Of a DNA stretch of 17,292 bases, positions 6,246 through 16,930 are shown piece after piece (position 1 is the first letter of the stretch; each line of letters begins with the position of its first letter). A program made the position numbers and the translations under genes. The notes beneath the pieces are model-generated. The model saw nothing but the letters and a program-made list of their open reading frames with translations. It did not search any database and was not told the origin of the DNA. The stretch comes from Octopus sinensis (lineage: Eukaryota), in NCBI RefSeq assembly GCF_006345805.1, contig NW_021824877.1:1-17292 (forward strand). The letters run 5' to 3'.

Positions 6246-8390
6246 CACTGGTCAACAAAACTCGAACTTTTTGCTGTCCTATGACCTAAAGAAATGGAAC
6301 TTTATAATACTTTTAATGCAGATCTCGGATCTGTTTTTAGAATATTTCTATCAAGCATAGCTTTTATGTGACAGAATAATCAAATTATACAATAATCATA
6401 CAATATTAATGCAGAAATAAGGCTGACAATTATAATTGGTCAATAGAATTAATGAAAAATGTTGTCCCATAAGCAAAAGTAGGTGAATTTAATAGCATTT
6501 TATCTGCAGAATTCAAGCATGTTTTCAGATTTTTTCCTCTAAGTTATAGTTTTTCTTTGATAGCATATATAAAATGTTAAACAAATGTATTTTAATGAAT
6601 TCAAAGATCTGGCTGGTATTACAAGGAAACTTACCTTTAAAACGTAGAAGAGTAAGATTCTCAACTGTATTTAGCTTCTGAAACATCCTTTTTTAGTGAC
6701 CAACGATAATCAGCCAACATAGAAGAGCCCCGCTTTCCTTGGTACCGGGTTTCTATGTTCAGAATGGCCTAGTGAAACCCTCACGCAGTGTTCGTCACTG
6801 ACAGCCCCAACAATTGCAGGGAAAAAGTCCAAGTGAGAATCCAAGAAGTGGATTTTTAGGCCCATATTGCATCCCAAGGCCTTGTATGATGTCAGTAGCC
6901 TTTCGCAAAGATAGAATAGTTTCCCCCCAAACTCTCTGCAAACTTGCTTAAATGACAGCCACACAGCTTTTTCAATATCTTTGAATCAAACTTTTGACCT
7001 CTCATCAGCTCCTTAATCTGTGGCCTAACAAAAATACCTTCCTTGATTTTTGCGTCACTTACTCTTGGAAATTTAGTTTTCAAATACGTGAATCCCTTAC
7101 CAGTTGTATCCATAACATTGGCGAAATTCTTCATCCATCCTAGCTTAATATGCAAAGGAGGCAGATAAATTTTCTCAGAATCAACAAGGGGAGGATCGAT
7201 GACATTCTCCTCTCTGGGAGTCAGAGATCGTTTCGGCGCCACACATTCTTTTCATAATGATTTTTTTTTTCTGATCCCGACTCTCCCACCCACAGAAAAG
7301 CAACAAAACTTGATGTAACCCAACTGCATTCCAAGTAAAAGTACCACAACTTTTAGATCACGACAAATATTCCACTTACGTTCCTCATACTTAACTGTTT
7401 GCAACAGAAGCTTCATACTCTCGTACGTTTGCTTCAAGTTAGCTGCATGGGCCAGAAGAACAGAAGGATACTTATTTCCATTGTGGAGTAAAACTGCTTT
7501 CAAGCTTACTTTTGATGAGATAATAAACAAACACCACTCATTCGTGCTATAATTGTGGTTAAACTCCTGCATACGAGAGTATACATCTTTACAAAACACC
7601 ACACCATCCTCAATTGAGAAAAAAATTGCAAAATCACAATGCAGAGCACGATAAAAACTAACTTTCTGGAGCCCTTTAACCTGGAACCAAGAAGTTCGGC
7701 TAGCTTTTTCGACAAGCTTAAATCCCGCACAAGAGCATCAGATCTCTCTGACTCAACAAATGTGGTTCACTTGATGAACAATAAGGCTCAAAATCCATGT
7801 CACCCGTTTCTTTCTCCACATCTACATCACTTGACCTGTCGTCACTAAGTGTCATTTGTTTTGGAGGGTCAAATACAGCTAAGTGTTGACTGTGAAGTAC
7901 TGGTCTCATAGCAGATTGTAAATTATGATATTTCGCAGTATGCTTGGATTTTGATGTTATACCTTGTATATTCGTCATGCAGAAGTAGCAATCTGAAGTG
8001 TGATCGTTGAGCACTCTCCAAATCATAGTGATGGCAAAAGGCATATGGCGTGAACCTTTGGCCCATGCAGTCAGAAGCCTGACACAGGTTATACAATGCA
8101 CATGAGGGGCCCAGCTTTTATCCTGGTCACCCCCTTTGCAGTCAAAATAATGCTCATAGCACTTTTTAATCAATGGCGTGAAACGCCGTCTTTGTGACTT
8201 GAATGTTAAGTCATCGTAAATATAGCAAAAGTTGTTTGCCATGTTTATACAGTTTCTTGGCATTGTGAAGGTGAATTAAATATGTGAACTTAATACACAA
8301 CAGCACGCCTACATTTCAAGCCCAGGTACTGACAAAGCATCGGTGATTGATCGACTCAGTGATGCCACCTTCGGTGACTCATTGACTCAG
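6246..8390 (-). mobile_element. Chapaev3-type (CMC superfamily) DNA transposon; one terminus recognised
   Basis: Terminus TAA|CACTGGTCAACAAAA at 6246 fits the CAC end and TWA target typical of Chapaev3. It encloses a transposase pseudogene. The other terminus was not found before the SINE at 8415. Confidence 0.8.
6638..8263 (-). pseudogene. Chapaev3-type DDE transposase, multiply frameshifted
   Basis: Colinear motifs: FCYI, DQDKSWAPH..C..C, H..DCYFC, SAMRPV.HS, LLHNGNKYPSV, WNICRDLKVV.LLLGMQLGY.KFCCF, IYLPPLHIKLG.MKNF, KIKEGIFV.PQIKELM, KIHFLDSHLDFFP...GAVSDEH, MLADY.W. Confidence 0.88.
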
Positions 8391-9358: not shown

Positions 9359-9885
9359 ATGACGAAAAGTAAAGAACTCACAAATTCAGTGAAAAACTTA
9401 ATTATTAAACAGTGGAAAGCAGGTAAAAGTTACAGGAAAATATCAGAGACCCTTTGTATTCCATTTTCTGCCGTATCTTCATTTATTCAAAGATATAAAA
9501 AAATCGGGAACTTTTGAAAACAGAATAAGATCCGGTGCACCACGCAAGATTTCTCATAGATCTTTAAGAAAAATGAAGCGAAGAATCGAAAAAAACGTAT
9601 TGATCGCCAAAAAGGAGTTGCAAGAAGATTTGTTAGCTTCAGGGACAAGTGTTACACTACGAACAATCAGCAATGAACTTCATAGGAATGAACTGAAGTC
9701 ACGCTCTCCTAGAAAAAACTCCGCTGTTGACTAAAAGGCATAGAGATGCCCGTTTAAAATTTGTTTATAAACATAAGGATAAATCTGATACATTCTGGGA
9801 AAATGTTCTATGGGCAGACGAGTCCAAAATTGAATTGTTTGGACGAAATTCGCGTAGCCATGTTTGGAGGAAAGATGGTACCGCC
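9359..9885 (+). pseudogene. Tc1-like transposase, N-terminal half, frameshifted
   Basis: MTKSKELTNSVKNLIIKQWKAGKSYRKISETL (paired-like HTH), RSGAPRKIS, TPLLTKRHRDARLKF, FWENVLWADESKIELFG (first D), HVWRKDGT, then an abrupt end. Confidence 0.9.
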
Positions 9886-12834: not shown

Positions 12835-13074
12835 TTCTCTTTTTTTCATTTTGAATAAATTTTGGCCGACCACCAACTTGATAGCAACGATGTGAAAGAA
12901 AACATCTTAAAGTGATAGTATGTTGTCAACATAATGTGACAGTCCCATAAAAGGGAAGAATGCTACTGTTATTTAGCCCTAGGAAACACCGTTTCCTGTT
13001 GGACTTGACACATTTCCTGCGTCCTTATGTTTTCAAAGTGGAGATTAGCACCTCCACACAGCAAAGCCAACATT

Positions 13075-13113
13075 CAGAGAATAGTTTCAGAGTCATTTCT
13101 CATCATCAGTCTG
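13075..13113 (-). ncRNA. minimal type I hammerhead ribozyme motif, probably mutated in stem III
   Basis: Minus strand: CAGA-CUGAUGA-U-GAG-AAAUGA-CUC-U-GAAA-CUA-UUC-UCUG. 4-bp stem I and 3-bp stem II. ACUAUU is one change from the palindrome ACUAGU followed by C (GUC site). Confidence 0.65.
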
Positions 13114-13177
13114 GTGTAGCATGGCTTGCTAGCTGTCGAGGCCTATCCGTCTTTGAAAGTATATATTTCAAGTGAAA

Positions 13178-13467
13178 TTGTTTGTTCCCTCTCCAGCCAT
13201 GCCTGTCTCATAAGGGCCAGTTTCCCGGTTTCCTTGGCGTATAGGCTCCCCACCTAGATAGGACGCCGGTCCTTCAAAGGTGAGCTGCAAGATGCAGGAG
13301 GAAAGAGTGAGAGAAAGTTGTGGCGAAAGAGTCAGCAGAAGTTCGCCATTACCTTCTGCCGGAGCCGCGTGGAGCTTAGGTGTTTCGCTCATAAACACAC
13401 ACATCGCCCGGTTTGAGATTCGAACCCGCGAGTCCGCTGCTCTAACCACTAGGCCATGTGCCTCCAC
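13178..13467 (-). mobile_element. tRNA-derived SINE (V-SINE-like), both ends present, with 11-bp TSD
   Basis: Perfect TTCAAGTGAAA at 13167-13177 and 13468-13478. A box TGGCCTAGTGG (13446-13456), B box GGTTCGAATCT (13416-13426), and a V-domain-like GGACCGGCGTCCTATCTAGG...GAAACCGGGAA. Confidence 0.9.
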
Positions 13468-13692
13468 TTCAAGTGAAACACATTCACTGATTTTTGAAAA
13501 TAGAAATAATATATTTCTACATCTCTCAGCGAGATATATGCAGTAGCAGCACGATAAAGTGATAGTATGTTGTCAACTTAATATGACAGTCCCATGAAAG
13601 GGAAGAATGCTGCTGTTATTTAGCCCTAGGAAACACCGTTTCCTGTTGGCTATGATACATTTCCTGTGTCCTTATATTTTCCAAGAATAAAA

Positions 13693-13739
<47 letters not shown>

Positions 13740-13749
13740 TATTATTATT
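13693..13749. repeat. (ATT)n repeat
   Basis: Direct reading of the sequence. Confidence 0.95.
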
Positions 13750-15404: not shown

Positions 15405-15683
15405 TCACTTATGTGAACTAAAGGTATGTTTCTGCCAATGATTACATCGATAAGCACGCTCTAGAACCGTGTTTACAAGGGGATTCTTATAAAATAGAAT
15501 AGAAAATAGTTCACTATTACAGAGTTGGCAAAATTCTTTGCCTTTATCATATGGGAATGAAATGGAGAAAATCAACCAATCTAAATTAAATTGTTTATTA
15601 TGGTCTTTTAGATAGCAAATTAATTTACTAAACTCTGTATTGTTGCGTTTATTACTATCCCTAAATTTAGAGTAATGTTGCAT
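15405..15683 (-). pseudogene. Penelope-like GIY-YIG endonuclease C-terminal fragment (Naiad-like CxxC...CxH end)
   Basis: H..KFR....RN.TEFSKLI..LKD.N..F...W.I.....PY......CQLC..E...IL......N........CNH, matching the C-terminal half of PLE endonucleases from recall. Confidence 0.78.
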
Positions 15684-16180
15684 ATTACACGATTTTTTTG
15701 TTTTTGGTTTTTTTGGTTCTCGTGTCGGAGTAACCAGTCAACATCGAAGAATCAACACCAAGAAGGAAGAAATATTTACATATTCGTTCGCCCGACATCG
15801 ATATTTTAGCCGCAGGGCCAAATTTGGGGGGGGGGGAATTTTTGGTTTATACACATAAAAAGCGCACCGGTGTTTAAAAGACCAATAGAGCTACGAGTCG
15901 GCAGCTAGCCTTTTTGTTGTTGACATGTATGTAGTTTCAAAATGCCTTATTTTACAACTATGAGATGTATTGTTATTGATAATGATTTTATCTTACTATA
16001 ATCAACAACAAACACATTTCGTCAGTACAAAAGTCTTTATTATATTAAGAATAACATTATCAAAACATGAAGGTAAAACAAATATGCTTTGTTTTCTTCT
16101 AGGCACCAATGTACTGTAGCAGTAGTCTTTCACGTTGTTCCCTAATTGACTTGCCACAGAAAAAAATCAGTCGAATCAGT

Positions 16181-16896: not shown

Positions 16897-16930
16897 ATTT
16901 CACGTTCCGAGCGAAGCTCTTCATCAGAAT
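16897..16930 (-). ncRNA. degenerate minimal hammerhead motif, likely inactive
   Basis: Minus strand: AUU-CUGAUGA-A-GAGC-UUC-GCUC-GGAA-C-GUG-AAAU. GAAA is changed to GGAA and the triplet is GUG. ACGU palindrome present. Confidence 0.55.

Follow-up and report, generated by a model that had tools for sequence, protein, structure and literature searches.

The non-LTR retrozymes of metazoans, as reported in PMC7229834 for mussel (350-390 bp) and axolotl (Rtz331/353), are non-coding elements of about 350 bp with one type I hammerhead and a GC content below 45%, and they occur in genomes that also hold autonomous Penelope-like elements. The main text of that report does not name octopus. It has been argued from co-occurrence and pLTR similarity, mainly in vertebrates, that retrozymes derive from Penelope elements as non-autonomous forms (10.64898/2026.07.22.740005). 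Penelope-like elements themselves insert with an inverted arm and with a tail at one end (10.1101/2021.04.23.441226, PMC11167929), an anatomy that was traced in vitro to two internal start sites of the reverse transcriptase (PMC11167929). The Tx1 clade of LINEs includes target-specific elements, such as Tx1 in Tx1D, Keno in U2, and Tx1-Mar and SINEU-3 in Mariner-N4 (PMC4494074), and the targeting of other transposons by Tx1 LINEs is already published (PMC4494074, PMC4640811); a hammerhead repeat is not named as a target in the parts of the Tx1-clade literature searched. The repeat annotation of Octopus reports active L1-Tx1 and Penelope families, and its main text mentions neither hammerheads nor ribozymes (PMC13282606). 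Our literature search found no cephalopod retrozyme and no LINE targeting hammerhead repeats, either of which may be held in Repbase, Dfam, subscription papers or supplements. Non-LTR retrozymes and their proposed dependence on Penelope are thus already known; a site-specific LINE lineage and the signs of hitchhiking described below are new relative to the literature searched.

The window analysed here is an entire contig of 17,292 bases, and the genome searched comprises 2.72 Gb. One stretch of the window is a single copy, now decayed, of a 346-bp hammerhead repeat that is dispersed and non-coding. Overall, we hold with good confidence that this decayed copy belongs to a family copied in trans in the Penelope manner, in which a site before the ribozyme core has repeatedly been taken by Tx1-like LINEs. 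The features of the copy are as follows.

12909-13685, minus strand: entire insertion; the 346-bp hammerhead unit runs through 1.4 periods and holds a SINE that arrived later.
13556-13685, minus strand: first pass of the unit, 5'-truncated, unit positions about 217-346.
13479-13555, minus strand: unit positions 1-77, of which 1-60 are the one-sided 'tail' segment of other copies.
13468-13478: SINE target duplication, right copy, 11 bp.
13178-13467, minus strand: tRNA-type SINE; it carries A and B boxes and has a short tail rich in AAC.
13167-13177: SINE target duplication, left copy, 11 bp.
13119-13134, minus strand: empty LINE target site, which is the 5' arm of distal helix I and corresponds to the 13-17 bases duplicated in LINE-bearing copies.
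13075-13113, minus strand: type I hammerhead motif with helix I, CUGAUGA core (13109-13103), helix II, GAAA and palindromic helix III.
13058-13069, minus strand: 3' arm of distal helix I, pairing with 13122-13132 (each pair in 72-90 of 98 copies).
12909-13038, minus strand: second pass, unit positions 217-346, up to the short 3' end.
13693-13749: (TAT)n microsatellite abutting the 5' junction.

The initial annotation had proposed a 130-bp direct repeat and, after removal of a SINE flanked by target duplications, a non-coding period of 346 bp, and both are borne out. Of 130 bases, 119 are identical between the arms at 12909-13038 and 13556-13685, with no gap (blastn, E 5.6e-50), and their spacing minus the 301-bp insert (13178-13478) is 346, a period that is also present in uninterrupted copies at other loci (L022, L028, L005). 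No similarity to reverse transcriptase or endonuclease is found within it. The insertion is 5'-truncated at 13685, its 3' end at 12909 is the 'short' end of the family, and the inverted arm and tail are absent from 12909-13685. The two arms differ at 8 of 128 columns and have no departure in common, which agrees with a single template followed by decay. The (TAT)n at the 5' junction fits an AT-rich insertion preference.

The SINE in this copy is incidental. Its 11-bp target duplication is exact, and we take 13446-13456 and 13417-13426 to be its A and B boxes; ARAGORN found no tRNA in the SINE head. The SINE was considered as a targeted insert and rejected, since none of its 29 other best relatives lies near the unit, all of them being in unrelated flanks.

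Elsewhere in the genome the first 269 bases of the window copy have at least 72 matches (best 40 scored of 2504 candidates), and an uninterrupted copy used as query has at least 93 (best 40 scored of 3021 candidates). The 35-nt core has 99 exact matches in the genome and none in the control; from this number and a departure of 7%, the hammerhead-bearing arms are roughly estimated, rather than counted, at about 1,300. In an alignment of 36 arms from 29 other loci, from which four partial arms were dropped, 32 arms end in GAAACUAGUC and each core position is kept in 34-36. Among the forward arms of 98 core sites, which have a median length of 290, 17 are longer than one period. The multi-copy state, the partial tandem copies and the consensus with a hammerhead core that the initial annotation had predicted were all found, and none of the outcomes it had set against itself (a single-copy unit, constant attachment to RT or endonuclease, a consensus lacking the hammerhead) appeared.

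With a period of 346 bp (150-450 bp in the definition), no coding sequence and one type I hammerhead motif per period, the unit agrees in these respects with the definition of non-LTR retrozymes. It resembles those of PMC7229834 in each of the respects given above, its GC content being 39%; the circular RNA and cleavage are properties of the published retrozymes, and the unit is likened to them by its genome sequence and predicted ribozyme. Unlike the non-LTR retrozymes with long arrays, its copies are mostly dispersed, span 0.5-1.5 periods and have inverted arms. Tandem hammerheads, two or three, occur in few loci only (L028, L021), and L021:850-1800 consists of three tandem copies of a shortened variant of about 272 bp with a hammerhead in each. 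In six contig sets with five organism labels, 29-50% of sampled words of the family are present, which suggests that the family is common to related species.

The hammerhead motif of the window copy spans 13113 to 13075 on the minus strand, and its cut is predicted between 13079 and 13078. The call is based on pattern, pairing and covariation across families rather than on a library match or an assay; scanning with Rfam models revealed no hammerhead in either the window or L022. The initial annotation had placed a 'minimal' hammerhead at 13075-13113; the motif stands, whereas the word 'minimal' does not, since helix I runs on as a long irregular rod and helix II consists of 3 bp above a U.U pair. 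The min-HHR described in PMC4209133 has a long helix II (7-8 bp), a short helix I and a helix III that is absent or minimal. The unit departs from this description, helix III being a short palindrome, and fits the canonical metazoan type I hammerhead better. One natural period folds at -100.9 kcal/mol, compared with -73.9 +/- 4.9 for 60 shuffles (z -5.5); this is evidence for structure, not for circularity.

The palindromic helix III of the unit is like that of axolotl HHR_Amex1, and the U.U base of helix II is like that of HHR_Amex2 (PMC7229834). Axolotl retrozymes with either feature are reported there to cleave well only as dimers, and both features predict weak cleavage by the hammerhead of the unit. 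Eight of nine predicted Xenopus retrozymes likewise showed no cleavage in vitro (10.64898/2026.07.22.740005). Compared with the 36 aligned arms, the window copy alone has U at 13081 (G in 35/36) and A at 13098 (C in 36/36). These departures break the palindrome of helix III; therefore, judged by its bases, the window copy is probably a poor ribozyme.

The anatomy of the insertions was examined at 98 distinct core sites. The 3' end lies at unit 328-350 in 48 of them, about 60 nt further in 33 and elsewhere in 17, and an inverted arm is present at the 5' end in 55. Both ends could be classified in 41 arm pairs (14 pairs were unclassifiable and two loci are counted twice): 27 are short/tail, 13 tail/short, one tail/tail and none short/short. 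The tail, about 55-60 nt, is therefore on one end only in 40 of 41. Arms differ at 8.7% of columns within a locus, as against 12.4% between loci. An inverted, 5'-truncated arm together with a one-sided tail is the anatomy expected of trans-mobilised Penelope-like insertions, and the family has it. Since it combines the one-sided tail and inverted arms with no attached RT gene, the unit is a non-autonomous Penelope-type hammerhead element of the non-LTR retrozyme kind. Mobilisation by a Penelope-like reverse transcriptase, which had been put forward for the window copy, thus gains backing from the family.

The unit shares 5' truncation, partial tandems, the inverted 5' arm, the tail at one end and the AT-rich junction with Penelope-like elements (PMC4209133; PMC11167929; Craig et al. 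preprint). It differs from them in having no ORF, a tail of about 55-60 nt instead of 30-40, and a canonical rather than a minimal hammerhead. Because the one-sided tail is a mark of the Penelope enzyme, the anatomy of these mollusc insertions directly supports the proposal, still open, that Penelope enzymes move the retrozymes of animals. As to origin and mobilisation, our conclusion is the same as that of 10.64898/2026.07.22.740005; here it is supported by insertion anatomy, and no similar pLTR was found. In the mechanism that we propose, RNA of the unit would be transcribed from the hammerhead strand and run through the predicted cut site, and a Penelope reverse transcriptase would copy it in trans, presumably from one of two internal start sites that lie about 60 nt from each other (unit 346 and 346+57).

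All copies with a whole hammerhead span the cut site, and the 5' ends of inverted arms do not gather there, so that the template would be either circular or an RNA left uncut. We looked for clustering of 5' truncations at the cut site but found none: not one of 55 inverted-arm 5' ends lies within 5 nt of it. We give a re-ligated circle, which the initial annotation had proposed as the substrate of rolling reverse transcription, about an even chance. The other reading, an uncut linear tandem transcript with no circle and with no part for the hammerhead in copying, is a serious one that falls somewhat short of even. It accounts for the same copies and for the absence of ends at the cut site, it agrees with the weak helices II and III, and genomic dimers that could serve it exist (L028, L021). 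Furthermore, in an assay with purified Penelope-like protein, mutation of the ribozyme left insertion normal, and the principal substrate was unprocessed RNA (PMC11167929). Against it, no forward arm is longer than two periods (n=98), and therefore long masters are rare, or are missing from the assembly; in addition, similar units of 330-390 nt form circles in mussel and axolotl (PMC7229834). RNA reads cover the unit about 100-210 deep in three RNA-seq runs of one study, in which almost no reads are 99% alike to the unit, the source perhaps being a related species. The reads have no strand bias, both mate directions being similar, and their ends do not accumulate at the cut site, as a linear template would have it; 74-80% of them continue into unlike sequence. 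They look like read-through, and libraries of this kind do not distinguish a circle from tandem copies.

In 13 of the 98 core sites (the hammerhead-first junctions) a foreign 3' end abuts one and the same base, 25 nt before the core (window 13134), and in 12 of them LINE similarity lies upstream. This base is met by four or more different LINE 3' ends, and the LINE insertions have target duplications of 11-17 bp. The site is empty in the window copy, and the initial annotation had not noted that LINEs target the family. An exact junction pattern gave five sites and was too strict for counting. The same base was reached from the LINE side: 27 of 30 copies of LINE B (all 31 candidates scored, 30 fetched) end at the site 25 nt before the ribozyme core. 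Twenty-two enter the unit at the site, five enter a remnant of the site and then other sequence, and three do neither, one being 3'-truncated and two lying at sites of other hammerhead families. When six rows already known via the hammerhead, via the junction pattern or as query are left out, the numbers are 16, 5 and 3 of 24. Target preference has been defined by over 20% of flanks in one repeat type (PMC4494074); LINE B, at 27/30 and with target duplications, lies above this value.

Individual loci agree with insertion into the site. In L352 a frameshifted LINE B of 5.05 kb, with similarity to ORF1, APE, RT and zinc finger, lies between two hammerheads with a duplication of 15/16 bases; in L291 both copies of the duplication share one private extra base; and in L347 LINE B is followed by a remnant of the site and then by the next LINE copy. 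A further insert, A, is an ORF1-only element of 1.75 kb that uses the site of this unit as well as sites of two other families, with duplications of 13-17 bp. Among its 30 fetched rows (best 40 scored of 123), a strict core lies 15-30 nt downstream in 10, compared with 22 of 20,000 random control positions. Twenty-six of the 30 begin with one of three target motifs (10 of 20,000 controls), two of which were derived from these same rows, and nine rows match the motif of this family.

The related LINE-X lies within a 480-bp hammerhead array in seven of its nine youngest copies (query included), and a hammerhead motif lies within 900 nt in only 9 of 30 rows of its clade; the target preference is therefore lineage-specific. 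The LINE-X subfamily is young, its copies being 98-100% identical, so that an active pair of endonuclease and target may be available. Related LINEs are also found at other hammerhead families, and other subfamilies insert about 60-85 nt upstream of the hammerhead. An earlier idea that the LINE always lands at the base of helix I was dropped in view of these subfamilies and of the rod, which extends further.

LINE B is 39-74% alike to the LINE-X pieces, in which Pfam RVT_1 and zf-RVT are over the cut-off and zf-CCHC and Exo_endo_phos are just under it. The domain order is knuckle ORF1, APE, RT and zf-RVT, as in the ORFs that characterise the Tx1 clade. Of 120 listed relatives of a LINE protein only two have names, one from a coral ('Transposon TX1 149 kDa protein', 39%) and one, a hypothetical protein, from Argonauta (62%), and the best solved relative is human L1 ORF2. 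The domain order and the one named relative suggest that the inserted LINEs belong to the Tx1 clade. As in Tx1-clade LINEs (PMC4494074), there is an ORF2 with APE, RT and zinc finger, a knuckle ORF1, a single site in a multicopy repeat, a target duplication, serial insertions that sandwich the duplication, and non-autonomous riders. Unlike the known ones, these LINEs target a retroelement that bears a ribozyme, they make use of several hammerhead families, and they appear to be taken onward by the host element. Ribozyme retroelements would thus be an added target class for site-specific LINEs, with three levels of nesting: Penelope, retrozyme, and a LINE with its own ORF1-only rider. The endonuclease of the LINE itself may choose the site in the unit, and the LINE, landing just before the hammerhead, would probably be one parasite living on another. 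The ribozyme that follows the LINE stays whole, since the 5' arm of helix I is among the duplicated bases.

The upstream unit and the duplication are kept in only two of the 13 hammerhead-first junctions, and thus many junction copies may descend from few insertion events. At L146 both inverted arms have the LINE B end and the hammerhead, one with a short end and one with a tail, and at L254 and L387 the junction of the inverted arm falls within coding sequence of the LINE, no duplication is present, and one end is again short and the other has the tail. Taken most simply, these three loci suggest re-insertion of LINE-bearing units via the Penelope route; a deletion afterwards would also account for L254 and L387, though hardly for L146. 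If so, RNAs of LINE plus unit would hitchhike on the host unit, and junction counts overstate the independent insertions. In its extreme form this would do away with targeting: one or few old insertions would have made chimeric LINE-plus-unit masters, later amplified as single elements. The 11 of 13 junction copies without upstream unit and duplication agree with this, as do the inversions that break within LINE sequence at L146, L254 and L387. Two-sided duplications in L141, L238, L291, L352, L202, L355 and two other hammerhead families speak against it, as do the serial LINE copies parted by one site remnant (L141, L347) and the different 3' ends, at least four, at the same base; the duplications with private variants had already weakened it. 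As the whole explanation it is unlikely, and probably both targeted insertion and amplification of chimeric masters happened.

A bolder possibility, which we raise tentatively and consider rather doubtful, is that a Tx1-like LINE lineage has specialised on hammerhead retrozymes as a safe harbour and processing cassette. The LINE would land just upstream of the ribozyme in a tandem unit, the flanking hammerheads would cut it from read-through RNA, as R2 is cut by its own ribozyme, and it could circularise and spread via both its own ORF2 and the Penelope enzyme. L352 and L141, with a LINE between two intact hammerhead motifs, make processing of LINE RNA by a borrowed ribozyme, and kilobase cargo for the Penelope RT, directly testable. 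At L213, a LINE insert joins an inverted arm of another hammerhead family on its 5' side and ends in the window family on its 3' side, perhaps by recombination between LINE copies.

At least four further hammerhead families are present in the genome (L068:5741-6294, L065:7418-7804, L171, L174, L176, L165, L168, L180, L185); similarity to the unit is 61-73% for three of them, and the period of one is 360 bp. L246 and L202 hold an array of the 480-bp family with at least seven motifs, which contains a full-length young Tx1-like LINE with a duplication of about 17 bp; this family is a better candidate for an active retrozyme than that of the window. In the other hammerhead families the core is kept and the helix sequences are different yet paired (3 of 11 examples were not parsed by the script), so that the helices covary between families of this genome. 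This bears on the reading, which we regard as quite improbable, that the motif is a relic without activity and that the family multiplied in the way ordinary DNA repeats do. Such a reading would agree with the lack of an Rfam match for a motif predicted from sequence, and conservation among copies does reflect common descent rather than selection. On the other hand, core and pairing are maintained across families only 60-73% alike, and the 5' truncation and fixed 3' ends indicate reverse transcription.

The initial annotation had also expected a unit with no RT or endonuclease gene attached, and this holds in the copies examined: no RT/GIY-YIG ORF adjoins the unit in 98 stretches around core sites, in which the upstream sequence covered was at least 6.9 kb for 39, 1.9-4.3 kb for 25 and about 1.5 kb for 34. 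Penelope protein similarity occurs in two of the 98, once on the opposite strand and once weakly at 4.3 kb, neither being a flanking ORF. Conversely, no unit-like repeat was found downstream of Penelope ORFs at 45 distinct loci with GIY-YIG (56 rows; the candidates number 5029, so the sample is small), nor at 15 loci of a second Penelope-like clade (a small sample of 12577 candidates). Matches of 61-68% to the unit near Penelope ORFs (L057/L061, L065, L066, L068, L076) were rejected as pLTRs, since they are upstream, inverted or kilobases off and those Penelope families carry different hammerheads downstream; they are related hammerhead families. Most improbable of all is that the copies are pLTR fragments of an autonomous Penelope element outside the sample: their ends are of the Penelope type, intact RT-GIY-YIG elements with their own, different hammerheads are present in the genome and the partner search covered a sample only, yet the unit closes on itself with a 346 period at many loci, Penelope protein similarity is as rare as stated, and the Penelope-like remnant in the window (15405-15737) carries another hammerhead, its end being 1.3 kb distant.

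This remnant, on the minus strand, is the 3' part of an element of the second Penelope-like clade. After it, at 15116-15040 (minus strand), comes a hammerhead motif of its own whose helix II is long. The clade is abundant, with at least 150 matches among 12577 candidates, and its ORFs elsewhere are of 778 aa, with no Pfam hit and 21% identity to the ORF of L064. At L064:1-6572 lies a Penelope-like element that is young; its two ORFs are of 479 and 781 aa, and its terminal repeats of 637 bp are identical and include a hammerhead motif. No solved structural relative of the Penelope ORF was found. Two more hammerhead-like motifs lie in the window at 16927 and 16739, both on the minus strand, the latter with a long helix II and a palindromic helix III. 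On the plus strand, 1718-2454 and 9402-9734 contain broken remnants of mariner-type and Tc1-type transposases (Pfam HTH_48, Transposase_1, HTH_Tnp_Tc3_2). Finally, a series of broken reading frames at 6710-8275 on the minus strand, one of them with a weak DUF7673 hit, is probably a decayed mobile element.
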